From a virus (Duplodnaviria > Heunggongvirae > Uroviricota > Caudoviricetes): a stretch of DNA of 46,795 nt. The DNA is taken from positions 1 to 46,795 of the IMG/VR virus record IMGVR_UViG_2740892118_000012; one strand, written 5' to 3'. The notes under the pieces are model-generated. The model had not been told where the DNA came from. It saw nothing but the letters and a program-made list of their open reading frames with translations, and did no database searches. Positions 1 through 25,957 of the stretch are shown in pieces. The first letter of the stretch is position 1. Each line of letters begins with the position of its first letter. A program made the position numbers and the translations under genes.

Positions 1-3000
1 ATGAAAAAAAATTCTTTAAATGTGATTTTGGATACTGTTTTCTCGGCGAAAAGCATCAATGGTGAGAAATCTCATTCTTTTATATCGTATAAATTAGTTA
101 AAGCTGTAGAAAATTTAAGTGGATATGACTTGGATCTTTTCCTCAATCGTGCGATAAACCATCCTAACTTCCCTAGCAATATGGATTTTTCCTTACGAAC
201 AGTTTTTACAATTGAACAATCTAACACTATTGAATTTAAAAATTTCATTTCAGAATTGGTGTGGTACAAGCATATTTTCATACGATATAAAAAACACCTT
301 AATGATATATTATCGGCAAAGGCAAGACTTGAGAAGTTAGTTCTTTTCGCAACAGGTAGTGAATGTATAAAATATTTAGATGAAATAGAAAGCTCTTATG
401 GAGTTAGTTTTTGGAGCATTGATGCTCGTCTCTTAATAAATAAAGTTTTGCTTAACGAAAGCAATGGGTTATATGTTAAATCAATTCTATCTAAAACCCA
501 CTATAAACTTACAGAGTTTATGTTACAGCAGCTATTATTTAAGCATCAAGTACATAACTTTGATGATTTTTCAAAGAACCTTATAAAAATACTAGATGAT
601 ATGCGCACCACTCAAGATAATGGGTATGCTAGAAATTTAGCTGATGGTATTTCATCCTTTTTAATACCTTTAGAGTTTGATAAAAATATAGATCTCAAAA
701 ATAGAACCTTAGCACCATTTACCAACCTTCCTTTAATAGATCAATTTATCATATTCCAGAGAACTATAAGCGATTTACAACTTCATGGAAATGGTTTAAG
801 AAATAGCGAGTTAAGCTTAATTGCAGAAATTAACAGCTTTATTAAAAATAACTATCTCAACAATATTTTAGATGGAAGAGAGCGTAATATAGAGAATATT
901 GATGAACACTATAAAAGTGTTATTCGACGTTATACTATAGGTGATTATACTGGGTGTATTTCAGAAATAAATTCAGTTCGAACGCAGAAGACAATTTTGC
1001 CATTAATTGAAATATATGCAAAATCCCATGTGTATCTTGATAAGAAAATTTCAGACTCATGCATATTCAATAAATTAACAAACTGGCTTATAGCAATTAT
1101 AAAATGCGACAGACGCGCTGGAAAATACATCGATGAATTTGAACTTTTAGCATCTAAGATATATTTCAATTCAAATTCATCCTCTCTATTCTTCACATTA
1201 TATAATTTAATAAGTGATAACCATAATAAATTAAACATATCTCGTATAAATCTAACCAAAAATGGTTCCTTTGTAACATCCCTTCATTTGAATATAACAA
1301 TCAAGGAACTATGGACTGAACTTGGAATAAAAGAGAATGAGATACCAAAATATCGATTATTTAAATTCAAAGACCTAGCAAATCTATCCTTTGATGAAAT
1401 CAAAAAACACTACGAAGTATACAATGATAATGTAATAATTCGCTCTGAATATTTAAAAGATTATACTAACTTTTTATTAGAAAATGAAAAGTATGAATTA
1501 TGCATCCAATTTATAGCTGAAAACTGCATCGGCAACCCCGCAAATTATTACTACTTCCCAATCCGAAAAATAATTGATTTTGTAAAAGACAATATTTTTG
1601 ACTATGCAAGCGTGGCCTTATCTATATTGATAGATATTTTTGTCAAAAGCACATCAAACACTTCAAATGAGCTTCTTCTCGAAAGTTATGAGAGTTTAGT
1701 AGATATTTCAAATATTAATAGGCCATCTACCCATTATTGCTCTAAGCAATTAACTCCATTAGAGCACTATTTCCTTAAGTTTATCTGTATACCTTCCGTG
1801 ATGGATTCAGACCCTTCATTCACAGGCACGGACGACTTGAAGAAGGAAAGAATTGCTATTATAGATCTATTATTAAAAGAACACGATGATGCAGATTTAT
1901 TGAAAGAGAAAGACGAAATTATAGATGAAATATCATTCGAAGAAATAAAAACAAAATATGAGACAGGAAAAATATTTGTTGATATAGAAAATTTAAAACG
2001 GGCAAAGCTTGAAAGATACAGATATTATTTTGATGCACTTAAGGATTCGCTTATTCTCGGACTAGAACCACCTGAAGACTTTGCTTTAATTACAGACGAT
2101 GGGAATATCACAGCCATTCCATCTGGCGATACAAACTCTATAATCCATGAACTTCTAAAAGAACTAATCTCCGATTTTGTTAAAAATGAAAATTACGGTC
2201 TTGATAAATATTTGAGTGCAGATATACGGCATGGTGTTTTTGAAAATCAACTCAGATCAAGTGCTGAAAAATCGCAATTAATAACTGATATGGATGGTAC
2301 TGGACAGTATTCGAAAAGCAATTTAATTATTGAGACATATCCATTAATTAACCCTATTATAAATAACGAAATAGGGACAGCAATAGCTGATTTCTCTTAT
2401 CACTTTGACATTGAATTGGCTAAAGCCAATTCCTGGTTCAATGTCAAGACAATGCTCATAAGTGAATCACAGCAAGGTATGATTGATTTCCTCATTTCTG
2501 TTGATATGTTTAATTCATTTAAAGCAGCAGTTTCAAATCAAGCATCTTTTGAGAAGTTTTTTGACGCTTGTATTAACTTCATGTGGGAAAGAACGTTCAG
2601 ATGTTTGAATGATATTAAAGAGCGATTGCATTACGAATTTAAGAGGAATATTTTAGATTTAATTGCCACTCTTAGGCATCAAATTGATATCTATAGAAGA
2701 CGTAGTTCCATGAGAGAAATCCAGGAGAAAATTGACCTCTTGGCCGAAAGCATTAATAAAGAAATTGCAACAGTCTGCGATTGGTTAAATGTACTTGAGT
2801 ATAACGAGGAGAAAATATATAAAATATCATCCGTGATGCAGGCATGTAGGAAAACTTTTTTTAATATACACCATTGTTCTGATGATGCTATCGTTTTTGA
2901 TTCAATGTATCATGATGATGAACCAAAATTATCTTATAAAGAAGCCAAGCCTCTAATCACATCAATAATAACAGCGTTAAACAATGCTATGGCCTATGGT

Positions 3001-3276
3001 AATAAAAAAATCTTTATCAGTATTAAGCCTGAAGAAAAGTCATGGAAAATAACCATCAGAAATTTGATAATTGAGACAAAGAACAGAACTACCAACCAAA
3101 TTTTACAAGAGATTGATGATAAAATAAAACGAGGGGATAATAGTCTAAATATAAAAGAAGGCGGAGCTGGAATATATAAAATATATGATTTATTATGTTC
3201 ATTACCGCAAAGATTTAATGTGAATCATTGCATCCAAAATAACGAATTCATTTTAAATATTGAGATAAAGAAATGA
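1..3276 (+). CDS. Large sensor-like protein with C-terminal histidine-kinase-type (GHKL) ATPase region; first gene of a Detocs-like three-gene phosphorelay cassette (DtcA-like). ATG at window position 1, so the N-terminus may be truncated by the window edge
   Basis: ORF 1..3276 (1091 aa). C-terminal ~200 aa carry an N-box-like 'ITALNNAMAYGN', a glycine loop 'EGGAGIYKIY' and a candidate H-box 'ATLRHQID'. No Walker A P-loop seen. Stop overlaps next start (ATGA at 3273-3276). Strongly AT-rich. Confidence 0.6.
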   Translation: MKKNSLNVILDTVFSAKSINGEKSHSFISYKLVKAVENLSGYDLDLFLNRAINHPNFPSNMDFSLRTVFTIEQSNTIEFKNFISELVWYKHIFIRYKKHLNDILSAKARLEKLVLFATGSECIKYLDEIESSYGVSFWSIDARLLINKVLLNESNGLYVKSILSKTHYKLTEFMLQQLLFKHQVHNFDDFSKNLIKILDDMRTTQDNGYARNLADGISSFLIPLEFDKNIDLKNRTLAPFTNLPLIDQFIIFQRTISDLQLHGNGLRNSELSLIAEINSFIKNNYLNNILDGRERNIENIDEHYKSVIRRYTIGDYTGCISEINSVRTQKTILPLIEIYAKSHVYLDKKISDSCIFNKLTNWLIAIIKCDRRAGKYIDEFELLASKIYFNSNSSSLFFTLYNLISDNHNKLNISRINLTKNGSFVTSLHLNITIKELWTELGIKENEIPKYRLFKFKDLANLSFDEIKKHYEVYNDNVIIRSEYLKDYTNFLLENEKYELCIQFIAENCIGNPANYYYFPIRKIIDFVKDNIFDYASVALSILIDIFVKSTSNTSNELLLESYESLVDISNINRPSTHYCSKQLTPLEHYFLKFICIPSVMDSDPSFTGTDDLKKERIAIIDLLLKEHDDADLLKEKDEIIDEISFEEIKTKYETGKIFVDIENLKRAKLERYRYYFDALKDSLILGLEPPEDFALITDDGNITAIPSGDTNSIIHELLKELISDFVKNENYGLDKYLSADIRHGVFENQLRSSAEKSQLITDMDGTGQYSKSNLIIETYPLINPIINNEIGTAIADFSYHFDIELAKANSWFNVKTMLISESQQGMIDFLISVDMFNSFKAAVSNQASFEKFFDACINFMWERTFRCLNDIKERLHYEFKRNILDLIATLRHQIDIYRRRSSMREIQEKIDLLAESINKEIATVCDWLNVLEYNEEKIYKISSVMQACRKTFFNIHHCSDDAIVFDSMYHDDEPKLSYKEAKPLITSIITALNNAMAYGNKKIFISIKPEEKSWKITIRNLIIETKNRTTNQILQEIDDKIKRGDNSLNIKEGGAGIYKIYDLLCSLPQRFNVNHCIQNNEFILNIEIKK

Positions 3277-3722
3277 AAATTCTTCTTGTTGAGGATATTG
3301 AATATAAGCGTGATAAGGTGATCGGTTTACTAGAGTCTATTTCTGCCGATGTATCAGTCGATGTAGCTAAATCTTATGTTTCGGCAGTAAATTCCGCAAC
3401 CAGTAAAACTTATGATCTTATAATATTAGATATGAGCCTTCCCACTTACGATAAGGGGCCTAATGAAAATGGAGGTCGCTTCAGAGTGTACGGAGGGAAA
3501 GATATTATTCGCAAGTTAATGAGAGGAAAAGAGCATCCAGTAGTTGTGGTTTTAACACAACATACAACTTTTGGTGAAATTGGTGAGCAAAAAAATACTG
3601 ACACTCTATCACAAGAGTTGAATGCTTTAATGGGATCAAAATTTATAGGTATTGTAAAATATGACTCAACTAAACCTCAATGGAAAGATGAAATAAAAAA
3701 AGTCGTACAGGATTTGTTATGA
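3273..3722 (+). CDS. Stand-alone response-regulator receiver (REC) domain protein (DtcB-like)
   Basis: 149 aa. REC signature: N-terminal 'ILLVEDIE' acidic pocket, 'DLIILDMSLP' with phospho-acceptor Asp, 'VVVLTQ' Thr, downstream Lys. ATGA overlap with both flanking genes. Confidence 0.7.
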   Translation: MKILLVEDIEYKRDKVIGLLESISADVSVDVAKSYVSAVNSATSKTYDLIILDMSLPTYDKGPNENGGRFRVYGGKDIIRKLMRGKEHPVVVVLTQHTTFGEIGEQKNTDTLSQELNALMGSKFIGIVKYDSTKPQWKDEIKKVVQDLL

Positions 3723-4882
3723 TTAAAATATTAATAGTTGATGACAATAAATCTAGAATTGAAAAGCTAAAATCTAGCTTAACTGAACTCATCACAAAAA
3801 ACATGATAAGGATTGATGAGAAATATACAAGTGACGCCGCAAAAATCGCGCTCAAGTTAAATCAATATGATTATTTAATTCTTGATGTCTTTTTACCTAA
3901 AAAAGATAACTATAGCCCAGATGAAAGAAATGGATTAGGTCTTTTAAAACAAATAAATTCAGATTCTAAATTTTACTCTCCAAAAAAAATAGTTGGCATA
4001 ACTGCATATCTGAATGATATATCCAGATATGAATCCGAATTCAGAGAATATGCTTCAATTATATTCGAGGCTCGACGTAATGATACTGGATGGCTTGAAT
4101 CACTCAAAAAAATCATTGAAAAGGATGTTGAATCTCAAGTAAGTTATAATCTCAATGAAAAAGATAGTGTTTTAATAACAGTACACGGTATAAGAACCTA
4201 CGCACCTTGGCAAAATACCATAGAAGAAAAAATAACCAATATATCAAATAAATTTAACTATATAAAATTCAATTATGGTTTTCTAAATATTCTTTGTTTT
4301 TTATTCCCTCCGACTAGACATCTATTTGCAAGAAAAATAATCCAAGACATACGAATTACAGTGGAATCAAATAAGAATAAAAGAATTTATATTATTTGTC
4401 ATAGTTTTGGTACCTACCTTGTATATTGTGCCTTAAGTAAACTGACACATACGGATGCAAAAATTGAATGTTTAATTTTTTCTGGTAGCGTATTAAAACG
4501 TACTACCTCATTGAAAACATTAAAGCAACATTGTAATGCAATAATAAATGACTGTGCTGTAAGTGATTATATTTTATTACTATGTAAAATGTTAGTCATT
4601 GGCTTGGGCGATGCAGGCAGAAAAGGGTTTATTGAGCCAAATGATGGTGTTTTCATTAACCGCTATTTTAAAGGAGGACATTCAACTTACTTCGAAGATA
4701 AAGATTTCATAGAAGTGAACTGGCTTCCTTTAATTTTTGACAATAAAAATATCGCGTCACGAGATGAAAGAAAAAATCATATTTTTTCCGATGTCACCAA
4801 TGCTTTGCAAAATATAATTGAATATTTAAAAATACCAATATGGTTATTTTTTTCTTTTTTATTGATAGCACTGGTATTATAA
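3719..4882 (+). CDS. Receiver (REC) domain fused to alpha/beta-hydrolase-like (serine esterase/lipase-type) domain with C-terminal hydrophobic anchor; putative effector (DtcC-like with non-PNP effector)
   Basis: 387 aa. N-terminal REC ('ILIVDDNK', 'DYLILDVFLP', 'IVGITAY'). C-terminal part has 'LITVHGIRT' (oxyanion-hole HG), 'IICHSFGT' (nucleophile elbow x-H-S-x-G), 'DAG' and 'GGHST' (candidate acid/His), ending in hydrophobic 'IPIWLFFSFLLIALVL'. Confidence 0.65.
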   Translation: MIKILIVDDNKSRIEKLKSSLTELITKNMIRIDEKYTSDAAKIALKLNQYDYLILDVFLPKKDNYSPDERNGLGLLKQINSDSKFYSPKKIVGITAYLNDISRYESEFREYASIIFEARRNDTGWLESLKKIIEKDVESQVSYNLNEKDSVLITVHGIRTYAPWQNTIEEKITNISNKFNYIKFNYGFLNILCFLFPPTRHLFARKIIQDIRITVESNKNKRIYIICHSFGTYLVYCALSKLTHTDAKIECLIFSGSVLKRTTSLKTLKQHCNAIINDCAVSDYILLLCKMLVIGLGDAGRKGFIEPNDGVFINRYFKGGHSTYFEDKDFIEVNWLPLIFDNKNIASRDERKNHIFSDVTNALQNIIEYLKIPIWLFFSFLLIALVL

Positions 4883-4905
4883 TATCACTGCACATTAAAA
4901 ATCAT

Positions 4906-4933
4906 ATTGGAGCTTCCCTCATAAAGCTCCAAT
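4906..4933 (+). terminator. Perfect 10-bp inverted repeat hairpin (ATTGGAGCTT-N8-AAGCTCCAAT) downstream of the cassette; possible terminator or protein-binding site
   Basis: Seen directly; lies 24 nt after the stop at 4882 in a convergent AT-rich intergenic region; no clean U-run follows. Confidence 0.3.
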
Positions 4934-5361
4934 ATAAAACACCATCATTTCAATAGTACCTGCAGCTAATTAAAACTAGTCAACCGAAAACATTAATCAC
5001 TTTAAACTTTAGTATGCACTTATACTTTCTTAATAATAGAAAAACACTTACAAATAAATTAATCATGTCAATCTCCGTAACTACAACCTCGGAAAGTATG
5101 TAAACAGGAATCATTACTGAAAAAAACACGATTTCAGCAGAATTCTAGAAATATCCTGTGCTGCTGCCGATACCAACTTTCGTATATACTACCCTTCACG
5201 TTCCTTCTCGTTTTTATAAAACTATTCATTTATAACTATCAATAGGCATCATAACCAATGTAAGTGTAAGTACTGGTGAACGAGTGTCAATGGAGTTAAA
5301 AGTATCACTTCATCCTGCTAAATATAAGTTATCCTACGTTTTAATATACTAGAACTCAAAA

Positions 5362-6327
5362 TTAGAATGGTTTGTTAATATTAATAGATTTACCATTGAT
5401 ATCTTTTGACACCTTAAAAAAATCTATACCTTTTATCCACTGACATAACTGTTGTAGTGTTTCCATTGCCTGTTCTAACTCATTTTTTTCAATTCTAACG
5501 CCCCCATGATGGCTACAGGAATTTAATAATTCCTGAGCTAGAGTGATGTCATTCTTCAGCTTATTAGGCAGACCGAGAAAATTAATCACCCTCGACAAAC
5601 TCCCAAGCATTAACTTTTGATAGTCTTCTTCAAATTCCTTTTCAGCCCTAATATTTACTAACATCAAAACATACTCAAGATAACGCCGTGCTGTATTTCC
5701 CTTTTCTTGTAACGCATCTCTATCATACTCTTTAATATCACTCAATTCCTGTAGTAGAAAATCAAACTTAGCTATTGCCAAGTTAAGATTGATGTTATGC
5801 ATTAGCAATTCGGATGCATGATTGCTAACAGGTACACGATTTGGTGGACGTATCATTATAGCCGTCGTGTAACAATTTATATTTGGTATCTGTATAAATT
5901 CCTCACCGGAACGCGTAACACGTTGAACTTCTACCATATAGTGGCCAAATTTATCAATCTCATATGACCGACAACGAGCAGAATATAATTTATTTAGCTT
6001 TTTCCTGTCTTGATAATATGATTTTATTAATACAAAAAATGCTCTTTCGTGCTCAATAATTAAAATAGTCTCTATTGAAGCATGGTACAACCATCCGTTA
6101 TTCCATGTTAATTCAAGCTGTCTATTTCCATCTTTAAAATCAATTTTAGTTATACGATCCCAACTTCCTCTATCAATAAAATCGACAATATTGCGCCCAA
6201 ATCCTTGATAGTTATTTTTAACAATGTGCAATAGTACTGCCTTTATTTTATCCCAATCATGAATTTCTTTTTCATATTCACCATTTAATATATTCGTTAA
6301 ATCACTGTGAAAATTTTCATATGTCAT
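5362..6327 (-). CDS. Hypothetical protein (321 aa), AT-rich island cargo adjacent to integrase; no recognised domain
   Basis: ORF with ATG start at 6327; AT-rich codon usage like the cassette; convergent with the cassette and co-directional with the integrase. Confidence 0.55.
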   Translation of the reverse strand: MTYENFHSDLTNILNGEYEKEIHDWDKIKAVLLHIVKNNYQGFGRNIVDFIDRGSWDRITKIDFKDGNRQLELTWNNGWLYHASIETILIIEHERAFFVLIKSYYQDRKKLNKLYSARCRSYEIDKFGHYMVEVQRVTRSGEEFIQIPNINCYTTAIMIRPPNRVPVSNHASELLMHNINLNLAIAKFDFLLQELSDIKEYDRDALQEKGNTARRYLEYVLMLVNIRAEKEFEEDYQKLMLGSLSRVINFLGLPNKLKNDITLAQELLNSCSHHGGVRIEKNELEQAMETLQQLCQWIKGIDFFKVSKDINGKSININKPF

Positions 6328-6428
6328 AAGTATCTCTTTTTAGATAAAATTGGATTTCGACAAGTAGACGTTGATAACAACAAGACTGGTTAGATAATTT
6401 AATCATTGATGCAACGTTTAGCGTTGAA

Positions 6429-7613
6429 TCAATTGACATCATTACCAATTCTTCCAATGCAATCAGCATACCACTGCATCATCTCCCTCCGCCCTTCCAG
6501 ATACAAAGCATGGTTGTACGTCCCACGAATCGCATTCTTATCGACATGCGCAAGCTGGGTTTCAATCCATGCCGTATTGAACCCTTCCTCGTGCAAAATC
6601 GTACTCATCGTGTGACGGAAACCATGCCCCGTTACCTTCCCCGTATACCCAATCCGTTTGAATACCTGATTCATACTCGCTTCACTCATCGTCTTGCGGG
6701 GATCATTTCGCCCTGGGAATACCAGTGGATATTGCCCAGATATCACCTTGAGTTGTTGTACGATTTCCAGCGCTTGGGTAGATAGGGGGACAAGGTGAGG
6801 CCGTTTCATCTTCATACGCTCTGCAGGTATTTCCCACACTGCTTTTTCAAGATCAAACTCACTCCAGAAAGCACCTCGTAGCTCGCCAGTACGAACTCCT
6901 GTAAGGATCAGCAGACGAGCGGCAAGAACAACTAACGGGCTTCCTGTGTAGCCTGCGAGAGCTTTAAAGAAGTCTGGTAACTCCTCAACAGTAAGGAAGG
7001 GATAATGCTTCGATTCATGCCCTGACATTGCGCTGGTTAGATCCGCTGCAGGATTGTATTCCGCACGACCGGTAACGATGGCGTAACGAAAGACTTCACT
7101 GCAACGCTGGCGAACCTTCTTGGCCTTCTCTGTCGCGCCACGGCTTTCCATTCGACGTAGCACATTCAGCAGAACCAAAGGCTTGATGTCATTCACCGGC
7201 AGTTGGCCAATATAAGGGAAAATATCTTTATTGAAGGCTTCGATAATGTCGGAGGCATAACCTTCTGACCACCGGCTCACCTTCGTTCCGTGCCATTCAA
7301 GTGCCACAGCCTGAAACGTATTATTGAGCTGCACATCGCGAACCAACTTTTCTTCTTTCTTGGCAAACGATGGGTCGATACCTTCGGCCAGCTTTTTCTT
7401 GGCTTCATCACGCAGTGCCCTCGCTTGTGCAAGGGACACTGCCGGATAGACACCAAAAGCCATACGTTTCTCTTTTCCATTGAAGCGATATTTCATCCGC
7501 CAGTATCGAGAACCAGAAGGAACAACTTCAAGATACAAGCCTGCACCATCTGCTAGCTTGTAGGCTTTCTCTCTGGGTTTAGCAGCATCTACCTGTCGAG
7601 CATTAAGCTTCAT
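6429..7613 (-). CDS. int: P4-type tyrosine integrase (site-specific recombinase)
   Basis: N-terminal 'GLYLEVVPSGSRYWRMKYRFNGKEKRMAFGVYPAVSLAQAR' (P4-int N-terminal domain); C-terminal catalytic 'HGFRHT' and 'RGTYNHALY'. ORF track starts at a GTG at 7652; ATG at 7613 has RBS AGGGAG ~9 nt upstream (ATG at 7622 also possible). Confidence 0.9.
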   Translation of the reverse strand: MKLNARQVDAAKPREKAYKLADGAGLYLEVVPSGSRYWRMKYRFNGKEKRMAFGVYPAVSLAQARALRDEAKKKLAEGIDPSFAKKEEKLVRDVQLNNTFQAVALEWHGTKVSRWSEGYASDIIEAFNKDIFPYIGQLPVNDIKPLVLLNVLRRMESRGATEKAKKVRQRCSEVFRYAIVTGRAEYNPAADLTSAMSGHESKHYPFLTVEELPDFFKALAGYTGSPLVVLAARLLILTGVRTGELRGAFWSEFDLEKAVWEIPAERMKMKRPHLVPLSTQALEIVQQLKVISGQYPLVFPGRNDPRKTMSEASMNQVFKRIGYTGKVTGHGFRHTMSTILHEEGFNTAWIETQLAHVDKNAIRGTYNHALYLEGRREMMQWYADCIGRIGNDVN

Positions 7614-7776
7614 TGGGGGCATCTCCCTGGACCGAACACAGAATGCCCCCACTTATGCCCCCAACTGCGACTTGATTTCGGTTGAGTCCAGTTGATAACA
7701 GGAGATAAGATACGGGCCAGAAACCGCAGTATACGGGCTTTTAGTTGATTTCGGTAGACTTGGGAAGAGTTTGAAA

Positions 7777-7822
7777 TGGTGCCGATAATAGGAGTCGAAC
7801 CTACGACCTTCGCATTACGAAT
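7777..7822 (-). tRNA. Partial tRNA-Thr (anticodon CGU, thrW-like) 3' fragment of 46 nt, anticodon loop to CCA end; not an intact tRNA gene; attachment-site core repeat
   Basis: Reverse complement reads TTCGTAATGCGAAGGTCGTAGGTTCGACTCCTATTATCGGCACCA (anticodon loop, T-arm GGTTCGACTCC, CCA end). Identity to the recalled tRNA-Thr sequence stops 5' of this; flanked by phage DNA on one side. Confidence 0.75.
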
Positions 7823-8053
7823 CTGTAGCACCAATCATAACTATCTGTTTTAGCAAGCATTAACCGCATTCACCAAGCAATAGTTGATGGCACAAACAGA
7901 AAGTTGATGCATGATGTTGTCATGTGTATGTCACAAATACGGCACAACGATCTTCAAACATGTAGCCACTCAGCATAGAAGAGCACAAAGCCTTGCAATC
8001 CAGTGCAAAGCTTTGTGTGTCTCAGTTTTGTTTCATCGGTAATTATGTGTTCG

Positions 8054-8353
8054 CTACGATGCAAGAATCCATACCAATAAGCATCCGATAATTGGGAAAG
8101 AAAAATCCAACAGACTTCCCACATCCCACACGCGTGGATCAAAACCTCCCCACCACGGCATGTTGATGCGTTTCCCTTTCCCAAACTTTTCTATCCAGCG
8201 ATATTCTGCCTGGGTGTGTTCACGCGCAATGAAGAACGTACAACCGGCTATCGCACCGTAAGCCCAGTTTCCGGTAGAAAGGCCAACCAGTACCTGAGCC
8301 GCAAAAGCGCAAAGCGAGTGAAGAAATGGAGTGACATCAATGCTCTTAATCAT
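8054..8353 (-). CDS. Small hypothetical membrane protein (about 3 hydrophobic segments) immediately downstream of tailspike
   Basis: 99-aa ORF, start overlapping tailspike stop; hydrophobic stretches '[12 protein letters not shown]', '[13 protein letters not shown]', '[14 protein letters not shown]'. Confidence 0.35.
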
Positions 8354-10407
8354 GAAACTTCCCCATTGGTTGAAAATATGGCTCCTCCAACGCCAAGTGT
8401 ATTTCGTGTTGCGCTCAACCTCAGAGGGCTGGAGTCAGAATTAGAATATCCTGTAGCAGAAATAAAAGATCCTCCACTAATAGTCAACTGCGGAACATCG
8501 GCTATATCTGAATAAGTTCTGTCAGCAACAGTATTATTTATAGCCACATGTGATCCAAAAAAACTTCTTATTGTTTGGTTTTTAACTTTACTTCCTTCAA
8601 TGGTTATCCTACTACCACAGTCGGCAATAAATCCTGAATCTGCATCCAGCGTTGCATTCATAAAAGAAGCTTCAGATCTCTCTACATCAATCCATCTAAT
8701 ATCTTTTGTGGGATTTGCACCAAATACATGACAAATATTAGAGTTAAACCTTACACCATCTTGGAGGTGCATTAATTTTTTTATATCTGTACCCCATAGC
8801 CTTGGAAAATTAACAGATGCTCCTGCATGGCAATCAAATCCCAGCTCAACCCCTGAGATATCTACAGCCTTTCCGGAAATAACAGCACCAGTGTCTGCAT
8901 TAACGGCTGTTCCACAATTGCGCATATCATTACCAGCAACATCAACACAACCCGCACCATCAATACGCACACCAAGTGCACATCCATAAAAACCTTTTTC
9001 AATATTTGGTTCAAGGACTTTACCACTTGTTTCTGCATCACTTTCTTCAACGTCATGTCGTCTTGCATCAACATATGCTGTATGAATGCACGTTAATCCA
9101 CGATATGAGCAATGTATAGTTTTATGGTCGCGTATATTAACATTTGAACCATCTCTTACATTCCATCCTATATAACAATAGCTTGCACTTGACCCCTGAA
9201 AATCTGCTTTAACATTATAAATACAATTAACTGACGCAACCGTACTCTCTGTGCACCGTTCAAACTTACTTACAGGCATTGATGCCTTGACATTATTTAC
9301 CAGTTGCAGGGAAGAGTATCTGCTATAAGAAAAATCACATACGTAATACCCTTCTGGCATATATGCAGCAACACTTTCCTCATCAGGAGCACATCCGGTA
9401 TGATATGCACTAATTTTTGCACCAAAACTACCATGAATTCCAACGTAGAACTTTCGAGCACCTGAATACGGATAGAAATTAAGTTCAGCTTTTTGAGTTA
9501 CAATAAATGCACAAACATCGCTATCATCTCTATTTTCTTCAATCTGAATAGCAAATACAGGACTTTTTGCTGCATCGCAAATGTAAAATAAATATTTGTA
9601 TTCGTAATACGTCCTAACAGTTTTAGTAAACAAACTGGTATCAGAGAAAACCACTGAGTCTTCTGATATTATTTTAATCCATGATAAGTCACATCCTGCT
9701 GAAATTTCTATTTGCTCATTGAGCACAAAACCGGAAAGAATTTTAATTATGCAAAAATCAATGCCATTTTTCCATAGTGGACGCAGTGCAACAGCTGAGT
9801 TCAGAGCATCACTAATAGATTTAAAATTACCATATTCCCCAACTGTTATTGTGAATGCATACCTGGAATTAAATACTGCGGCACTCTCTCCAGAGTTAAT
9901 AGCTGCAGATATCATGTCATAATTTGATATAAAATCATTTGGCGTGATTATTTCTGCGTTTTTATTGTGCTGTGTTCTAAGTTTTGAATTTACATGAACA
10001 CTTTTAACTGCAATACGGGAGTCGTCAACAAGTATTTCATTACCCTCTGTTGCTAACTCTTGTCTTAACTGATCCGGATCATACTTCAGCACATTCGGAA
10101 AATAGAACTGCTGCACACCGTACGCATCATAAACAGCCATCGAATGGCCTTGCACGGTAACGAATTTGGCAATCTGTCCGTTATATACCGGATATCCAGC
10201 AGCGTTAATGATGATTGGCTGTGCAACAGGAACGTGAGAACCATCTTCGTTCTCAACATAGACCTGAATCTGGTTTTCTGGATTTACCGGGTCAGTGTCA
10301 ATTTTACCGATATAAATTTTGCCATTGGCTACGGCTTTAAAAGAACGAGCCATAGTGAAGAGTTGCGAAGGCATGCTCACTACAACATTGGCTGTAATGT
10401 CTGTCAT
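8350..10407 (-). CDS. Tailspike protein (P22 gene 9-type N-terminal head-binding domain, divergent receptor-binding domain)
   Basis: N-terminal ~110 aa '[13 protein letters not shown]...[21 protein letters not shown]...NVLKYDPDQ' closely matches recalled P22 tailspike N-terminus; the remaining ~570 aa do not. Confidence 0.85.
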
Positions 10408-10477
10408 TTAATTTGCTCCAGATACAAGGAATCGCCGCAGCATTGCCGCAGTGATGCATTATTAATCAAAAAAATAC

Positions 10478-10490
10478 GACCACCGTGGTC
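10478..10490. promoter_or_regulatory. Perfect palindrome GACCACCGTGGTC; candidate Mnt-type operator between mnt and tailspike
   Basis: Seen in sequence in the 148-bp mnt-tailspike intergenic region; resembles the recalled P22 Omnt GTGG/CCAC-core palindrome. Confidence 0.4.
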
Positions 10491-10554
10491 TTATTGAGGA
10501 TGCAATCAGCAGATAATAAGATGCCGATCCACTCACAAAAGCGAGGCATCAAGA

Positions 10555-10806
10555 ATGGGAAGAGATGACCCGCAATTTAATCTGCGGCTACCTTACGAAT
10601 TAAAGGAAAAACTAAAACAGCGAGCCAAATCCAATGGCCGCTCTCTTAATTCAGAATTAGTTCAGATAGTGACTGATGCTGTATCAAAGCCATCCAAAAT
10701 TTCAGGCTATCGAGACGATGCGGAACGCATCGCTGATGAGCAGTCAGAGCTTGTTAAGAAGATGGTGTTTGATACGCTGAATGATTTGTACAAAAAACCC
10801 ACCTGA
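10555..10806 (+). CDS. mnt: Mnt repressor (ribbon-helix-helix, Arc/MetJ family)
   Basis: 83 aa 'MGRDDPQFNLRLPYELKEKLKQRAKSNGRSLNSELVQIV...DDAERIADEQSELVKKMVFDTLNDLYKK' matches recalled P22 Mnt along its length. Confidence 0.85.
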   Translation: MGRDDPQFNLRLPYELKEKLKQRAKSNGRSLNSELVQIVTDAVSKPSKISGYRDDAERIADEQSELVKKMVFDTLNDLYKKPT

Positions 10807-10905
10807 AGGTGGGTTAATTTTTGCATTTACCTGGGCCATATTGACTACTTATAAAATGAGATCAATATTTAATCGCCCAATAACGGGTGTATGTTGAGGT
10901 ATATC

Positions 10906-11085
10906 ATGGCGAAAAAACCAGGTGAAAACACAGGAAAAAACGGCGGAATATACCAAGAAGTTGGCCCACGCGGCGGTAAGAAAGACAATTTTGCAACCGT
11001 CAAGGACAACGAAAGGCTTCCACCAACAACAAAGCCAGGTCATGGCTGGGTATTGGATAAGCGAACTCCAGACAGCAAAAAGTAA
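10906..11085 (+). CDS. Small hypothetical protein (59 aa), Gly/Lys-rich
   Basis: ATG at 10906 preceded by GAGGT with 5-nt spacing; followed by a terminator hairpin. Confidence 0.4.
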   Translation: MAKKPGENTGKNGGIYQEVGPRGGKKDNFATVKDNERLPPTTKPGHGWVLDKRTPDSKK

Positions 11086-11091
11086 TAATCA

Positions 11092-11113
11092 AGCCGGGTC
11101 ACTCCGGCTTTTT
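11092..11113 (+). terminator. Rho-independent terminator (AGCCGGgtcacTCCGGCT + TTTTT)
   Basis: GC-rich stem-loop followed by T-run, directly after the small ORF stop. Confidence 0.5.
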
Positions 11114-11464
11114 GATATGTCGCTCGCAGAACTCAACAAGCCTGCTCATTAAGTAGCAGTAAGTCTCGTTGGCTCTTCCTGGTTCAACATCAACACCTAC
11201 CCTTGAGCAGATATCGAATGCCATGTGAGCGCACTCATGGGCAATAGTAGATAGTTTGCCATTGAACACGCCTATCACATGCAAAACACCATTCTCGCTA
11301 CTCATTGTATGAGACGCTCCGTTGGCGTCCGAGTCATGCACGTCAACGCCAAGTTTTTGATGCAGGCGTTGCCATTCTGGAAAGTCTCTACAAAACACAA
11401 TTGTACCGCTCTCAAAGAGCGGAACGAGCATCTTTGGTACGTTTCCAATGTTAACTTTTTTCAT
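11099..11464 (-). CDS. Small hypothetical protein with HExxH motif ('IAHECAHMAF'); possible zinc-metallopeptidase-like moron
   Basis: 121-aa ORF; HExxH seen directly; no further homology recognised. Confidence 0.45.
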   Translation of the reverse strand: MKKVNIGNVPKMLVPLFESGTIVFCRDFPEWQRLHQKLGVDVHDSDANGASHTMSSENGVLHVIGVFNGKLSTIAHECAHMAFDICSRVGVDVEPGRANETYCYLMSRLVEFCERHIKKPE

Positions 11465-11498
11465 GGTATCCTGCGCAAAACTAAGGAGAGTTAATTAT

Positions 11499-11984
11499 AT
11501 GAAAAAATCACTGTTAATTATCCCGCTTCTGCTGGCTGGGTGCGCAAAAGTAAGCGACTATCAGGCAAGTTGCGAGCAACGCTATCCAAAGCTTAGCGAT
11601 ATGGCTAATTGCCTTGATGCCAGCTTGAAGAACGACTCTCGCATGGCATCAGCACCAACACCTAAGCTGTATGTCCTTGCTGCGAAGATGCTCGGGCAAG
11701 GTGTCGATGAAGGCAAGATAAGTGACACACAGGCAAGACTTGAACTTCAGAATCTTTATGTTCAATTACAAAGCCAAGAACAAGCACAACAAATAGCACA
11801 AAGCCAAGCATTCCAGCAGGCTTTATTGAATTATCAGGCTGTAAACACAATGCAAGCGATCGAGCAAAAAGCGCGCCAGCCTGTTATAACTCAACCTTAC
11901 CCAACACGCGTTGACACATATACAAACTGCAATTCAGGATTTGGAAACACGGTAACATGCAACAGTAGCAGTAATATCAGATAG
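11499..11984 (+). CDS. Lipoprotein (signal peptide with lipobox LLAGC), Gln-rich; prophage moron in the sieA/immI-equivalent position
   Basis: ATG at 11499 with RBS AAGGAGAG; N-terminus 'MKKSLLIIPLLLAGCAK'; ORF track begins upstream at 11448. Confidence 0.6.
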   Translation: MKKSLLIIPLLLAGCAKVSDYQASCEQRYPKLSDMANCLDASLKNDSRMASAPTPKLYVLAAKMLGQGVDEGKISDTQARLELQNLYVQLQSQEQAQQIAQSQAFQQALLNYQAVNTMQAIEQKARQPVITQPYPTRVDTYTNCNSGFGNTVTCNSSSNIR

Positions 11985-11997
11985 TTATATCTTATTT

Positions 11998-13845
11998 TTA
12001 TTGCTGTTCTGCTGTAATTTGGCTTGAAAGTATAGGGCGTATCGCATTTGCAGCATTATTTAGCGCTCTTTCATAGGCTGGTGTTCCTGCTTTGGTGTTT
12101 GCCAAACGTAAGAGAGCATTCCTTGCTGCTTTTGACTCATACAAGCGCATCATTGCACCGAAACCAGCCTCAAGCCCCATTGATACGCCAAGAGTCGCAG
12201 TTGCGCCAATCGTCCTTATCCTGTTGGCTTGCGATTGCCCCGTCTGAGTTACTACATTTGCGGTGTCTGACCTTGCTGTTTGCTGTAGAACTTCATGAAG
12301 AGAATCAAGCTCTTTCATGTGCTTTCCAGAAAAAATAGTGTTGTAAATTTCACCGCCTGACTGAGATTTCAGCTTATTAACTTCAGTGATGAACTTGGCT
12401 GGAGAGTCACCGGCCTTTTCCGCTATTTTGCTGACATAAGCTGCACGCATAGCATCTTTCCCTTTATTATCCAATGCGCTCCAGATTCGTTTCACGTCAG
12501 ATGGTTTTCTGCTTAATACAACGGTATTTATAAGTTCAGGACTGGCTTCACTGCTTGCCTTGTTGAGCTTGTTAGCAATGTTTTTATTAAGCACCTTATT
12601 ATAAACGTTTGCATAATCGGAATTTGCTTTAAGGTATTTTGCTGCGTCTGATGCACCGAGGTTTTTTGCAACTGCGTTACGAAGATCTTTTGACATTGCA
12701 TTCTCTACCATATTGGTAGCTGCTTTTGCCTGGTTTGGGAAGACCATAGCATCTCCCTGAACATTAGATCTAAATGCTGTTCTGTGCTGACGCAAGAGAT
12801 CAAACGTAACATCCAAATCAGTTGCAGGGTTTGCTAATTCTTCACGTAGGTTACGCAAGGATGTAAGCAGGCTTTGATTGGCAGACGTCCCAAGCCGTTC
12901 CTGTCTTGCGATCGCTGTATTCAGAGCATTCATGGTATTTGTGGTATCAACTGCGGCATTACCCATTTTATTGGTGACGTCATTGATAACAGCGCCAGCG
13001 GCATCCTTCCGCCCCCTTAACGTGGTGGTAAGAGATTTCACCACATCATCAGGGTTGTACTCACCAAAACGGTCAAAATAATTACTTACCAGCTTACTAC
13101 GCGTTGCATATTGCTCCGCTCGCTTTGAGCCTGTCCCGAGCAAAGCCCCCTCGGCATCCTGAGTTAGGCCGCGAGTGAAAGCATTTTTCGGCGGGATAAC
13201 ATCAGATGTCATTGGTGTCACGCCCATCGATTCTGATGTGGCAATTTTCTTCGCCACTTCTGGCGCAATATCACCTTTTATAGCCGTTATTCCACGCCCT
13301 ATTCCCTTTGCTGCTGCGGAAAGAACCCCCTGAGCGGCAAGGTTAACTCCGGCATTTTTAGCTGCATTTTGTGCGAAATCGCCTTTCTGATTTGCGGCCT
13401 CTGCCAGTGATCCAATAGCCATGCTTCCTGCCGTTCCAACTCCTGGAACTAAATACCCGCCAATTGTTTCTCCAGCTTGCGCATAAGGGTCTGTTGGTCG
13501 ATCGACTGGACGATAGACATCGTCCAAAACCTTGGGGCCACCAAGCCCCTGGCTGATTGCATTAATCAGACTTGCGCCGCCCTGCAATACGTCAAATGGT
13601 ATGTTTACCAGACCACGACCAGCCTGTTCCGCAATTTGCCCTGCACTTTGACCACCAGTGAGCCAATCGCCAGCTTGTTGCATCAATGATGGTTCTTCCC
13701 GTGTTGGTGCATTATTGGCCTGATTAACTGTTTGTTGCTGAACAGCCTGACCAGCAAAATACTCATCAATGGCGGTGCCAATATCTTCGGTGCTCGTACC
13801 ATCAGGAAAGGTAAATGTCTTACCGTTTGCAGTTACTTTCATCAT
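11998..13845 (-). CDS. Ejection/DNA-injection protein (P22 gp16-like)
   Basis: 615 aa at the position and size of P22 gene 16, last gene of the 4-10-26-14-7-20-16 block; stop/start overlap with gp20. Confidence 0.7.
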
Positions 13846-15248
13846 TCCACCGTAAATTGAATGCCTGATTTTGAGGTATATGATCCAACCTGATTCCGTG
13901 GTTCTCCTGAAGGTGTCGAATCTTGTGCTGGCGCTGCGTCAGTATTCATTGACATATACCGCTTAACGGCACTCCCCAATGATTCACCTTTTTTAACATC
14001 CAACCCCAATATCTGACCGCCATTACGCGATTGTCCAGGGTTGCCATTCGCGCTCATCCACTCAGCTTTAAACTCATTAAACTGCGCGTTTCGTCGCTCA
14101 AGGTTTGCCATTGCATCAAGCCATCTTGCGACCGTCTCAGGGTTATCCATGTCAGTTGGCGCACCCTGTCGAACGATCTCAACGTCTTTATCCGTTGCTG
14201 GGCCGGGAGGTAGGAATTTAAGAACCTGACTGTTAACAAGGGCATTTTGGCGAATGCGCAAATCACGCAATGTCGTATCGCTTCCGGTAAGTTTTGCGAA
14301 CATGTTCTGTGCGTTACCGAACAAGCCGGTCGTTGGTTTTTCTGCTCTGAACTGTTGAGCAAGCGCACTCATGGAATTGGCTGAGTTTGATGATGCTGTG
14401 GCATTGTTTACAGCCGTCTCGATGCCTTTTTCCATGTTTACTGACAGCTTAGGTGCTTCGCTAATCAACTGCTGAGCCTTTTCCTGCGCTTGCTGCATCT
14501 TAAACCCGAACTCTTGCTGATCCAGAGCCAAGCGTTGTGCTGCGATATTGTGCCCAGTCATTGCTGACTGATAGGAAAGGTTTTGCCCTCTCGCCTGAAG
14601 TGCTTCACCAGCCTGATTGCTGCGGATTGTCTCTGCCAGCCCGCCTCGGTCAATCTCACGACCAGCCATCTTGTCCTGAACATTGAAGTAATCAATCGGA
14701 CCAAGAGCAGCCATTCCAAGGTGATCAACAAACTCACCAAATCCTGAAGGATTCTGCTGATACATCTGAGCAACGCTGTTAGGGTCAACACCGACGCGAG
14801 TCAGTTCCTTGGCGTTGTTTTGCAGCCATGATTGCATTGCTTCTGGAGACGATGACGCAAGGCGTGCGCCAGCCGCTAAGGTGCCGATAGAATTACGCTG
14901 CTCTTCATCAATGAATCCCATGCCTTTACGAACGGATTCAATCTGGTCTGGATATTGAGTAGCCAACTTACGCAAAGCACCGCGATCACCAGACGCATAA
15001 GCATTAGCGTACGCCTGCTGAAATTCTTTCTGCCGCTGAGCCTGCTTTTCCTGCTGAAACACCCCCGCAATACCAGAAAGACCTTGCAAAGCTGTCAGCC
15101 CAACATTGTTAGCGCCTGAACGCTCAATATCATTGTTCTGCCTGATAAGCTGAAGCGTGTTGCCGATGTCATTTACGCTCGGAGCGTTTGAGTTGACACC
15201 ACCGATACCAGCCAACAATCCGCCATTTGTTCCTTGCCAAGTAGCCAT
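13842..15248 (-). CDS. Ejection/DNA-injection protein (P22 gp20-like)
   Basis: 468 aa (P22 gp20 ~471 aa); synteny. Confidence 0.7.
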
Positions 15249-15257
15249 GATTACCCC

Positions 15258-15953
15258 TTAAAACAACGATCCAAGCAGGCCAAGTCCGCCGCCAATTGCC
15301 GCACCTAATCCAGTGCCAAGTCCTGGAACAATAGAGCCAAGAGCAGCGCCAGTCATAGCCCCTGAAGCTCCTCCGCTAATTGCTGTCTGAAGGCCTGATG
15401 GTTTATTGGCATTAGCAGCGGCAAGAGCTGCGCTTTGCTGTGCAATGCTGCTCATGTTGTTGGCGTACGTCTGCCCGGCGTTTGCCTGACCTTGCAGAGC
15501 ACCAAGCCCAACGTTTGCCAGATTGTTGTAATTGCTCATCTGATTTGATAACCAAGACTGACCGAGTGTCGGCGCGATCGTAGCCAGTTGATTGCTTGTG
15601 GCTGTCGAACCAAGTCCACCCGTCGCCTCCGCAGCAGCAAGACTCTGGTAACGAGCCTGCCCTGCAAGGTCTTTATACTGCTGAGAGTTGTAATACTGAT
15701 TAAGTGCCTGCCCCTGACCTTCTAAACTGGAAAGGCTCTGAAGCTGGTTAACATACTGCTCCGCAAGAGGCGTGAACGGAGCAAGGTTTTTCATGATCGT
15801 CTGCCACTGCTGATTTTGCAGGTCTGCAGCATACTTCTGGGCTTCTGCTGCATACTTTGCGCTTTTATCAGAACTGCCACCTTTCCCGCCTTTTTCAGGG
15901 CAATAAGGTTCCTCGCCGCGCAGTTTTCTGCCCAGCTTAAATGCATATAACAT
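15258..15953 (-). CDS. Ejection protein (P22 gp7-like)
   Basis: 231 aa (P22 gp7 ~229 aa); N-terminus 'MLYAFKLGRKLRGEEPYCPEKGGKGG'; Gly/Ala-rich C-terminus; synteny. Confidence 0.7.
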   Translation of the reverse strand: MLYAFKLGRKLRGEEPYCPEKGGKGGSSDKSAKYAAEAQKYAADLQNQQWQTIMKNLAPFTPLAEQYVNQLQSLSSLEGQGQALNQYYNSQQYKDLAGQARYQSLAAAEATGGLGSTATSNQLATIAPTLGQSWLSNQMSNYNNLANVGLGALQGQANAGQTYANNMSSIAQQSAALAAANANKPSGLQTAISGGASGAMTGAALGSIVPGLGTGLGAAIGGGLGLLGSLF

Positions 15954-15955
15954 GG

Positions 15956-16414
15956 CTATCTCCCGTGATTCAGGAAGTCGATTAGTTCTTCGCGTGTGGC
16001 GCTGTAAAACGTCACGTCATCCACGCCTTTAAAGTATTTCTTGATGGTTCCTACACGATTAAGGCCAATCATTGCGCAGTACATCTGCCCGTGGCGGAAT
16101 TTGCGTGCAGCGAACGATGTGACACACTGAACAGTGGTGTTAGTCAGAATGTATCGCCAGAACGCCAGCCCGATTTCCTTGCTGAATCCACGAACCTCTG
16201 GCAGGTACATGGCGTGGCAATCAAAGGTCAAAGGCTGAATCTCCTGATAGTAAACAATGCCGCCGAACTGCCCGTGCACGTTCACCTCGAAGTAACGGCA
16301 TTCAGGCTTGTAGTCGTATCCATCACCGTTGTTGCTCCCGGCAATAATGTCAGGGTGATTTCCGACTGCTTCGATCAGGTCGATGTTTCGCGTTGGGTTG
16401 AACTGAATCATCAC
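15956..16414 (-). CDS. Head-completion/tail accessory protein (P22 gp14-like)
   Basis: 152 aa between needle and gp7, as in P22-like phages. Confidence 0.65.
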
Positions 16415-18782: not shown

Positions 18783-19259
18783 TATTCGCTCCCGTTATCG
18801 CAAGGTTCCTTTCGCTGGAAGTAATTCCAACCGTTCCACTTCGCCAACTGGTTACCACTACCAACAGGCATACGGTTTGGATAACCGGACTTACATTTAG
18901 CGGCTTTTGCTCTGTCCATTGCAGACAGTTTGACGAGTCTCTCTTTCCCGTATCTGGCAGTGGTTATAAGTTTTGCATTCGCTTCCAGCGCATAATCCGG
19001 AGCAATGCGGCAGGCAAGGTTGAAAATGACGGCATTAATAGCGTTATTTGATAAACCGTGCTCATCGCCCGGATCTGGAGCGACATCTGCATCAGCGAAA
19101 ATGTAGCCAACGTTGATACCAGGTGACACATCACCGCCAAGCCATTCAGCCATCATCATTTCAAGGTCGTTGACGCCGTCTTCCATAGACTGCGGTTCGA
19201 CATCGGTTAACGTGGCATTTGATGCCACACCGAGCTTACGTAATGCCGCAAGAACTAAA

Positions 19260-19282
<23 letters not shown>
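18782..19282 (-). CDS. Head-completion/tail accessory protein (P22 gp4-like)
   Basis: From ATG at 19282: '[33 protein letters not shown]...HGL...[14 protein letters not shown]' matches recalled P22 gp4. The ORF-track upstream extension (SQ)n is probably not translated. Confidence 0.8.
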
Positions 19283-19526
<244 letters not shown>

Positions 19527-19540
19527 GCTTGTCTCCAGAT

Positions 19541-19562
19541 AAAAAAGGGAGCCGAAGCTCCC
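19541..19562 (-). terminator. Rho-independent terminator immediately downstream of coat gene (GGGAGC-UUCG-GCUCCC + U6)
   Basis: Minus strand reads GGGAGCTTCGGCTCCCTTTTTT: 6-bp GC stem, UUCG tetraloop, T-run. Confidence 0.6.
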
Positions 19563-19570
19563 TCTGGTTA

Positions 19571-21777: not shown

Positions 21778-21790
21778 GGTTAACTCTCTC

Positions 21791-25928: not shown

Positions 25929-25957
25929 CTCACTTAGTTGTTATTTCAGGTTGAGCA

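Follow-up and report, generated by a model that had tools for sequence, protein, structure and literature searches.

The stretch of DNA analysed here (46,795 bp, hereafter the window) contains one end of an integrative island followed by a P22-like prophage, which meet at a fragment of the tRNA gene thrW. The features on which the analysis relies are as follows (a strand is given where one applies).

1..3276, + strand: cargo gene A, a 1091-aa DtcA-like sensor and histidine-kinase-like protein (PADLOC PDC-M60A, E 4.5e-55)
3273..3722, + strand: cargo gene B, a stand-alone receiver domain, DtcB-like (Pfam Response_reg; PDC-M60B, E 2e-35)
3719..4882, + strand: cargo gene C, a receiver, alpha/beta hydrolase and C-terminal hydrophobic tail, DtcC-like putative effector (PDC-M60C)
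5362..6327, - strand: conserved hypothetical gene (321 aa), flanked by the island integrase and the Detocs-like operon (ORF with homologues)
6429..7613, - strand: P4-type tyrosine integrase of the island (domain architecture; comparison with P4 Int)
7615..7666: three GGGGGCA/TGCCCCC repeats, putative P4-like arm-type integrase-binding sites, P arm (motif and layout)
7774..7793: proximal copy of the island att repeat, AAATGGTGCCGATAATAGGA (distal copy in SMS-3-5; three-way junction alignment)
7777..7822, - strand: displaced 46-nt thrW 3' fragment, the prophage attR core (match to thrW, to the P22 genome and to the published core)
7823..46795: P22-like prophage of the Lederbergvirus type, 39,033 bp when counted from one repeat to the other; its attL, which is the regenerated thrW, follows 14 bp after the window end
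8054..8353, - strand: 99-aa predicted membrane protein adjoining attR (phrog_1443, E 2.4e-53)
8350..10407, - strand: tailspike with the P22 Head_binding domain (Pfam Head_binding, E 1.6e-66)
25434..25928, - strand: small terminase (82% identity to P22 gp3)
36392..37108, + strand: C2/CI-type prophage repressor (phrog_4 transcriptional repressor; HTH_3 and Peptidase_S24 on an identical contig)
45411..45758, + strand: excisionase (phrog_2907, E 1.5e-52; 42% identity to P22 Xis, E 3e-31)
45635..46795, + strand: P22-type integrase of the prophage (54% identity to P22 Int, E 1e-157)

The island integrase is encoded by an intact ORF with the Pfam domains Arm-DNA-bind_3, Phage_int_M and Phage_integrase. 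Along the whole protein, it shares 45% identity with Int of phage P4 (E 5e-118), and the expected catalytic motifs (VRTGE, HGFRHT, LAH and GTYNH) were all found by eye in its translation. Its ATG lies 163 bp from the thrW fragment, and transcription is directed away from the fragment. The GGGGGCA heptamer has three copies in the whole window, all of which are located between this gene and the fragment, and their layout (i.e., one copy beside the int ATG plus a tandem pair) is that of the annotated P4 attP. In Escherichia coli SMS-3-5, a tandem GGGGGCA pair is also found inside the distal end of the island, and P4-type repeats are conserved on both arms. In the same genome, the far end of the island, 12,051 bp from AAATGGTGCCGATAATAGGA, has a second copy of this sequence that differs from it at one position.

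This far-end repeat corresponds to 17-20 nt of the tRNA 3' end, and is seen only in relatives, about 4.3 kb beyond the window. It is present in SMS-3-5 and 23CRST013, both of which carry an identical island. A 25-nt probe with three mismatches allowed returned the proximal copy only, because the repeat is only 17-20 nt long, and the far copy was located by a repeat search. An earlier reading of the window, made from the sequence only, had suggested searching to its left for a second direct repeat of the 46-bp core: a repeat of the tRNA 3' end does exist there, yet it is restricted to these 17-20 nt, carries one mismatch and was seen in relatives. The limits of identity at the junctions of both elements were read from three-way alignments that include an empty site.

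The integration module of phage P4 consists of int, a 20-bp core and GGGGGCA arm repeats. In comparison with it, the island presents the same arm-repeat layout on both arms and the same kind of target, a tRNA 3' end, with the core lying about 160 bp upstream of int in the island and 152 bp upstream in P4. Unlike P4, which targets leuX, the island targets thrW. When all P4 proteins were searched with tblastn against the 12-kb SMS-3-5 island, only int was found, and none of alpha, sid, delta, psu, epsilon, cI and vis; a P4-like phage satellite was rejected, given int is all that the island and P4 have in common. The CP4-6 element of E. coli K-12 lies at the same place in the chromosome, with thrW on one side and the yagU flank on the other, and has a gene module (toxin-antitoxin, DUF987, RadC and antirestriction) in common with the island. 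Unlike the island, CP4-6 has 34 kb and other cargo, and bears the shared module in the opposite orientation and position. Its IntF is unrelated to the island integrase (22% identity along part of the sequence, E 2e-5), and membership in CP4-6 was rejected for this reason.

Cargo genes A, B and C overlap in the order sensor, receiver and receiver-effector, and PADLOC PDC-M60 A, B and C were all matched. The Pfam matches of gene C (Response_reg, DUF900 and Lipase_3) are weak. The same three-gene order is found in the Detocs-hydrolase system of Enterobacter cloacae JD6301 (Rousset et al., bioRxiv 10.1101/2023.01.24.525353), whose length is nearly equal (4,923 bp, against 4,882 bp in the island). 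In comparison with this validated system, gene B presents 32% identity to DtcB (E 1e-19) and gene C 32% identity to the hydrolase-TM protein DtcC (E 9e-56), both over the full length. The two operons are alike in their receiver aspartates, in the HSFG hydrolase motif and in the hydrophobic C-terminal tail of C. They differ in the sensor part: the N-terminus of JD6301 DtcA, of which the first ~400 residues were compared, is barely similar to that of island protein A (E 2e-4), and it matches members of the protein A family with E 1.6e-17.

Protein A itself matched nothing in Pfam (kinase domains included), in NCBIfam or in single-sequence PDB searches. A word-indexed homologue search yielded two matches only, and an exhaustive one a family of 1,498 representatives, in whose alignment R743, H744, N995 and the G1054/G1055/G1057 box show no or almost no variation. 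In PDB, the family profile matches only histidine kinases, the best of them of the HK853 type, and weakly so (E about 1e-3). By these comparisons, the island cargo resembles the validated Detocs-hydrolase defence system. The 321-aa gene had no match in Pfam, PHROG, NCBIfam or PADLOC; its homologues, which occur unannotated across Enterobacterales, are solitary genes in unrelated contexts, and their genomic context was uninformative. In relatives, the part of the island outside the window also contains an IS3 element, together with a gene module for antirestriction, RadC, YeeU and CbtA.

On the other side of the fragment, phage DNA starts at 7823. It is 96% identical to phage IME10 over 60% of the query and 83% identical to P22 over 52%, and for the virion genes the best resemblance is with P22-like phages of E. 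coli, IME10 among them. The prophage is complete-looking in its gene content, with small and large terminase, portal, coat, an ejection protein homologous to gp16, tailspike, repressor, excisionase and integrase present. This exact prophage was not found among 5,426 complete E. coli genomes. In P22 and in the prophages SfI, SfII, SfV and SfX, which occupy thrW beside proA (PMC3636060), the 46-nt core, a homologous int-xis pair and an attP located 14 bp past int are all shared with the prophage studied here, as is the orientation, in which int adjoins the regenerated thrW and attR is found at the tail end. Unlike P22, the prophage has no gtrABC O-antigen conversion module beside attR, and the 99-aa membrane ORF stands at that position of the P22 gene layout.

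The fragment at the junction is an exact 46-nt match, in reverse complement, to the 3' end of E. coli thrW (tRNA-Thr CGU), from the base before the anticodon loop to the CCA. It occurs once in the window, with zero occurrences expected in shuffles, and its identity with the intact thrW of SMS-3-5 ends exactly at 7822. No intact tRNA was detected by ARAGORN or Rfam in the window, which is what a fragment of 46 nt would lead one to expect. The fragment is identical to the published att core of SfI, SfII, SfV, SfX and P22 (PMC3636060), and in the P22 genome the same core lies 14 bp past the int stop. The core, ATTCGTAATGCGAAGGTCGTAGGTTCGACTCCTATTATCGGCACCA, is found at both ends of the prophage: exactly at the junction and within the regenerated thrW.

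The latter was observed on contig LSEW01000185.1 (GCA_001638135.1), which matches positions 35635-46795 of the window with 0 mismatches in 11,161 bases. On this contig, an intact tRNA-Thr(CGT) lies 15-90 bp beyond the end of the window, and proA, proB and phoE come next. The order is therefore int, 14 bp and thrW, which is the P22 attP layout. All that the sequence-only reading had described at the locus is confirmed by these results: the 46-nt tRNA-Thr fragment, the P4-type integrase about 160 bp from it and transcribed away, the tailspike end of a prophage on its other side, and a P22-type int/xis pair at the far end reading toward the edge. The intact tRNA-Thr it proposed to look for beyond 46795 is the one found on the contig.

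The contig from which the window derives breaks 464 bp to its left, where the relatives have the IS3 element, thus the far end of the island and what lies behind it were read from relatives only. In these, the far end abuts a ~260-bp scar of an older P22-like prophage, formed by the last 170 nt of int fused to a piece of the attR-proximal gene, and homologous to window positions 46595-46795 and 8099-8179. The description of the locus as a tandem of two elements hence stands as far as the island and the prophage are concerned, and falls short by a third layer, the scar behind the far repeat. For the genome studied here, the three-layer structure is one we infer from the relatives.

The genomes available present the site in several states. 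In KN13-4 it is empty of both elements, with the order yagU, int scar, thrW and proA; this is the empty site sought by the earlier reading, found by sequence comparison. In fifteen complete E. coli genomes, the 7,822-bp island segment is 99.9-100% identical to that of the window and abuts an intact thrW without a prophage. One of them is SMS-3-5, whose chromosomal backbone is 99.99% identical to that of the window. The island plus a P22-like prophage at thrW are found in two genomes, XH992 and 23CRST013; XH992 was compared directly, and its backbone is the same, with a P22-like prophage at this junction that is another mosaic than that of the window.

Given these states, we consider that the island and the prophage were inserted successively into the same E. 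coli thrW, in a three-layer history with the island first and the phage second, with a probability of about 90%. This agrees with the earlier proposal that the phage integrated into a tRNA already occupied by the island. The order of integration rests on the comparison among genomes, because the architecture alone cannot give it. The junction sequences, the empty and half-filled sites elsewhere, and the intact integrases and excisionase were observed directly.

In the mechanism proposed, each newcomer would recombine with the intact thrW beside proA, supply a replacement 3' end, and push the older elements and the displaced tRNA fragment farther from proA. The oldest layer would be the P22-like prophage now reduced to the ~260-bp scar left of the window. 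The second would be the ~12-kb island, brought in by its P4-type integrase through a crossover within the last 17-20 nt of the tRNA, with the Detocs-hydrolase-like operon and the 321-aa gene as cargo and, outside the window, the IS3 element and the antirestriction/RadC/YeeU/CbtA module. The youngest would be the 39-kb prophage, whose P22-type integrase would use the 46-nt core starting at the anticodon loop, and whose insertion would have left the fragment at 7777-7822 between the tailspike end and the island integrase.

Arrays of this type are known from the Islander/TIGER work on tandem tDNA arrays (PMC4383910), in which an intact tDNA stands at one end with the newer elements nearest to it, and every element is associated with a separate integrase and a separate displaced tDNA fragment, the fragments all being oriented alike. 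Here, the intact tRNA-Thr(CGT) is at the end, the integrases are of the P4 and P22 types, and the displaced fragments have 46 nt and 17-20 nt (the latter in relatives), and no difference in kind was found. The two integrases use different sublocations of thrW: the P22 type an anticodon-centered 46-nt repeat, and the P4 type the 3'-terminal 17-20 nt.

It had also been suggested that both elements may still be mobilizable, and that either is still active is what we infer from their sequences. This is reasonable for the prophage, which is probably inducible; attL x attR excision should restore the island-only state. For the island it holds in part: its int, core repeats and arm sites are intact, yet no recognizable excisionase, replication, packaging or transfer genes were found in it. 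Excision of the island would be possible because core repeats and P4-like arm sites are kept on both arms. The alternative is that the island is a fixed, decaying and immobile remnant, which would leave the prophage as the sole live element, and we consider this a serious contender, somewhat short of even odds. The lack of excisionase, replication, packaging and transfer genes, with int alone shared with P4, is consistent with it, as are the IS3 insertion and a DUF905 pseudogene in the relatives and the mismatch in the distal core repeat; moreover, comparison of the thrW flank in three island genomes showed almost the same backbone in all of them, and vertical inheritance would explain the distribution of the island. 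The intact integrase ORF with its catalytic motifs and the arm repeats conserved on both arms argue for an island that can still move, and so does CP4-6 of K-12, another thrW element, whose integrase is different and whose excision still occurs in 1-27 of 100,000 cells (PMC3105296).

A reverse order, with the P22-like phage first and the island later entering the displaced 46-nt fragment, would produce an identical final gene order, and the fragment does contain the 17-20-nt P4-type core of the island. It is nonetheless very improbable, given the identical island lies beside an intact thrW without the phage in the fifteen genomes, including SMS-3-5 with its nearly identical backbone. In addition, the differing mosaic of XH992 on the same backbone points to separate recent lysogenizations, and the older scar distal to the island agrees with the entry of every new element at the intact tRNA. 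A single composite element, in which the integrase and defence genes would be accessory (moron) genes of the prophage, is close to untenable: although the two are contiguous and P22-like phages do carry accessory genes beside attP (gtrABC in P22), the island has its own integrase, att repeats and arm sites, the att core stands between it and the phage DNA, its GC content is 30-34% where most of the prophage has about 50%, and its occurrence without any prophage in fifteen genomes already refutes this reading.

With the successive insertion of island and phage as the preferred history, one consequence can be considered, which we regard as doubtful: the prophage may mobilize the neighboring island by in situ packaging before excision, as P22 does in lateral transduction. 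The P22-type small terminase of the prophage points to the island side, and by analogy with P22, whose packaging direction is described in PMC8575938, packaging would run toward lower coordinates, i.e., toward the island. If such in situ packaging takes place, the first headful would comprise some 18 kb of the late genes of the phage, the whole 12-kb island and adjacent yagU-ecp DNA, and an island without transfer genes would be exported at high frequency by a phage that landed beside it.

The pattern itself is a textbook one and not new, as tandem tRNA arrays, the thrW hotspot and the 46-nt att core are all already known, and the array opens no new question; this particular array is, as far as could be found, undescribed in the literature. 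Its empty, half-filled and filled sites make it a clean worked example of the layered build-up at a tRNA hotspot, with the newest element nearest to the gene, and show that two integrase families can share one tRNA through different parts of it. The exact element boundaries are now fixed for the annotation of this E. coli lineage. Finally, a probable Detocs-hydrolase operon on a small island beside a probably inducible prophage would provide a usable test of prophage-mobilized defence genes.

The island, a roughly 12-kb element with a P4-type integrase, reaches thrW, the E. coli tRNA-Thr(CGU) gene beside proA, through a segment at window positions 1-7822, from which the following features were obtained.

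within 1-4882, gene A: 1091-aa protein
within 1-4882, gene B: 149-aa stand-alone receiver domain
within 1-4882, gene C: 387-aa protein combining receiver domain, alpha/beta hydrolase and hydrophobic tail
5362-6327, minus strand: 321-aa conserved hypothetical protein
6429-7613, minus strand: P4-type integrase with the three domains of P4-family integrases

The sequence-only reading had placed the integrase gene about 160 bp from a 46-nt tRNA-Thr 3' fragment and transcribed away from it, and both elements of that description hold. Against the complete thrW gene of E. coli SMS-3-5, identity spans 7777 (the CCA end) to 7822 and stops there, so that the 46-nt fragment covers tRNA-Thr(CGU) from the base before the anticodon loop to CCA. 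A 45-nt probe taken from it has a single match in the window (7777-7821; chance expectation, none), and neither ARAGORN nor Rfam reports an intact tRNA in the window. The integrase start codon lies 163 bp from the fragment, with transcription directed away from it. Its product shares 45% identity with phage P4 Int along the whole length (E 5e-118), and the translation presents the motifs expected for a catalytically active tyrosine recombinase.

The P22-like prophage starts at 7823, on the other side of the fragment, and the features discussed below are as follows.

8054-8353, minus strand: 99-aa predicted membrane protein (phrog_1443, function unassigned by family)
11099-11464, strand opposite to the next: ORF of unassigned function (phrog_1365)
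11448-11984, strand opposite to the previous: ORF of unassigned function (phrog_6067)
25434-25928, minus strand: small terminase terS, 82% identical to P22 gp3

As had been proposed, the tailspike end adjoins the fragment, with both the 99-aa ORF and a tailspike with a P22 head-binding domain on that side, while a P22-type int/xis pair reads toward the right window edge (Int 54% and Xis 42% identical to the P22 counterparts). The prophage DNA presents 96% identity to phage IME10 and 83% to P22, and also encodes terL, portal, coat and ejection proteins and a CI/C2-type repressor. The accessory-gene slot near attR, the junction whose core is the fragment, holds the 99-aa ORF here versus gtrABC in P22. 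Between the ejection-protein gene and the tailspike (10408-11997), where the P22 counterpart region is sieA, mnt, arc and ant, relatives have annotated Arc-family genes; the two ORFs found here (phrog_1365 and phrog_6067) may serve superinfection exclusion or be accessory genes.

The intact tRNA-Thr anticipated beyond position 46795 was found on contig LSEW01000185.1 (GCA_001638135.1), which was retrieved by an exact protein match of the phage integrase. Given its 0 mismatches to window 35635-46795, this contig is very probably the source of the window. It carries an intact tRNA-Thr(CGT) 14 bases past the int stop codon, followed by proA, proB, phoE and crl. Measured between its repeats, the prophage is 39,033 bp long. 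The same layout is observed in P22, where the int stop is followed by 14 bp and an identical 46-nt core. The core has been published as that of the SfI, SfII, SfV, SfX and P22 att sites (PMC3636060); P22 and the Shigella serotype-converting phages share with this prophage both the 46-nt core and the int-xis-attP layout.

On the left, LSEW01000185.1 begins just 464 bp outside the window, at a point occupied by IS3 in relatives, and the far end of the island is therefore unreadable in the window's source genome; the contig end, and with it the missing island end, probably reflects an assembly break at a repeat. In SMS-3-5, the island measures 12,051 bp from the tRNA to the direct repeat TTTAAATGGTGCCGATAAGAGGA, which has one mismatch versus the tRNA end. 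E. coli KN13-4 provides the empty site, in the order yagU, integrase pseudogene fragment, 14 bp, intact thrW and proA. A three-way alignment of this empty site with the distal and proximal junctions presents the classic attB/attL/attR pattern, with a common core of the island att sites of AAATGGTGCCGATAA[G/T]AGGA. The second direct repeat predicted to the left of the window thus exists, but its size is 17-20 nt rather than 46. The shorter repeat fits a P4-type enzyme using a different tRNA sublocation; Islander recognises both anticodon-centred and T-stem crossover-site classes (PMC4383910).

The architecture by itself cannot separate an island-first from a phage-first order. Population evidence, however, favours the former. 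Segment 1-7822 is found at 99.9-100% identity in 15 complete E. coli genomes that represent the island-only state, in all of which the match ends exactly at 7822, within an annotated intact tRNA-Thr, followed by proA. In E. coli 23CRST013 and XH992, the same island adjoins the same 46-nt fragment, beyond which lies a P22-like prophage whose far end in XH992 reads xis, int, 14 bp, intact thrW and proA. Among 5,426 complete genomes, only 7 have exactly this type of junction between island flank, fragment and phage flank. In its chromosomal flank, the window's source shares 99.99% identity with SMS-3-5 and 99.98% with XH992, yet the XH992 prophage matches that of the window in patches only (87-99% identity) and has tRNA-Thr and tRNA-Asn genes of its own downstream of Q (L003, 24604-24759), whereas the window's prophage has no tRNA genes. 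Given these near-identical flanks and differing prophages, one island-bearing lineage has acquired different P22-like prophages on more than one occasion, with some members still unlysogenised. The proposal that the phage entered a tRNA already holding the island is thereby borne out.

A scar of about 260 bp lies directly outside the distal island repeat (about 15454-15725 in the SMS-3-5 locus L001; 2728-2882 in the KN13-4 locus L007), between yagU and thrW or the island. One part corresponds to the 3'-terminal 170 nt of a P22-type int, with 74% identity to window 46595-46795 and an identically placed stop and 14-bp spacer; joined to it is a decayed stretch of 81 nt homologous to window 8099-8179, within the 99-aa gene near attR. 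In KN13-4, PGAP labels it an integrase pseudogene. Across 5,426 complete E. coli genomes, 175 cover at least 80% of a 461-bp probe comprising the scar and the island junction. By this homology, the scar is the remnant of an older P22-like prophage that had occupied this site. Three layers thus make up the array, as read from the window together with relatives, which alone supply the island's far end and the scar. The oldest layer is farthest from proA, as expected if every newcomer recombines with the intact tRNA gene.

The island cargo at 1-4882 is a three-gene block of about 30% GC, each gene of which matches the PADLOC candidate system PDC-M60. B and C each present 32% full-length identity to DtcB and DtcC of the Enterobacter cloacae JD6301 Detocs-hydrolase, which experimentally protects E. 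coli against diverse phages (bioRxiv 10.1101/2023.01.24.525353), and the operon lengths are nearly equal (4,923 bp in JD6301 versus 4,882 bp here). In the gene A family, with about 1,500 representatives, an Arg-His pair is invariant and the N and G boxes are kinase-like; the family profile matches only histidine kinases in the PDB, weakly, and the known N-terminal part of JD6301 DtcA matches family members. Given the identity of B and C, the operon length and these family features, the cargo is a probable anti-phage Detocs-hydrolase system, with gene A as its putative kinase. In such a system, A would sense infection and phosphorylate C, phosphorylation would switch C on as a membrane-damaging hydrolase, and B would serve as a phosphate sink. 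This probable anti-phage operon adjoins a prophage. The 321-aa protein has no family match in any library searched. Its homologues, with 42-76% identity across Enterobacterales and Aeromonas, occur singly, with large gaps on either side, at chromosomal locations unrelated to one another (Serratia, Proteus), and the gene may be a self-contained unit with an accessory or defence role.

The prophage retains its two att cores, its int and xis are intact, and it has a repressor and what looks like a complete virion gene set, so that excision and phage production are plausible. Regarding the island, the annotated attP arm repeats of P4 have the common motif GGGGGCA, of which the 46.8-kb window has only three occurrences on either strand, all within 7615-7666: one adjoining the int ATG and a tandem pair, the same arrangement as in P4. 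SMS-3-5 has a further tandem pair 61-85 bp inside the distal island end. Core repeats, putative arm sites on both arms and integrase are thus all intact. A search with all P4 proteins matched the island at int only, with no alpha, sid, delta or psu and no vis/alpA-type excisionase, and the copies in relatives contain a pseudogene and an inserted IS3. The island may excise infrequently and would be unable to transfer on its own. K-12 CP4-6, another thrW element, excises in 1-27 per 100,000 cells (PMC3105296), although its integrase is unrelated and this is a loose precedent only.

Given that the P22-type small terminase (25434-25928, minus) is oriented toward the island, the first capsid-full of an in-situ headful packaging run could possibly hold the island in full; PMC8575938 describes lateral transduction and the direction of packaging in P22. 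Uptake by a recipient would be awkward, since that capsid-full would lack the thrW-proA flank. Mobilisation of defence islands by such packaging was recently demonstrated in principle (PMC12829572). Each component has a precedent: E. coli thrW is known as an integration hotspot (PMC7545054), and Islander lists 125 tandem arrays among 3,919 islands (PMC4383910). This array is another instance of a known pattern, now bounded to the base pair.
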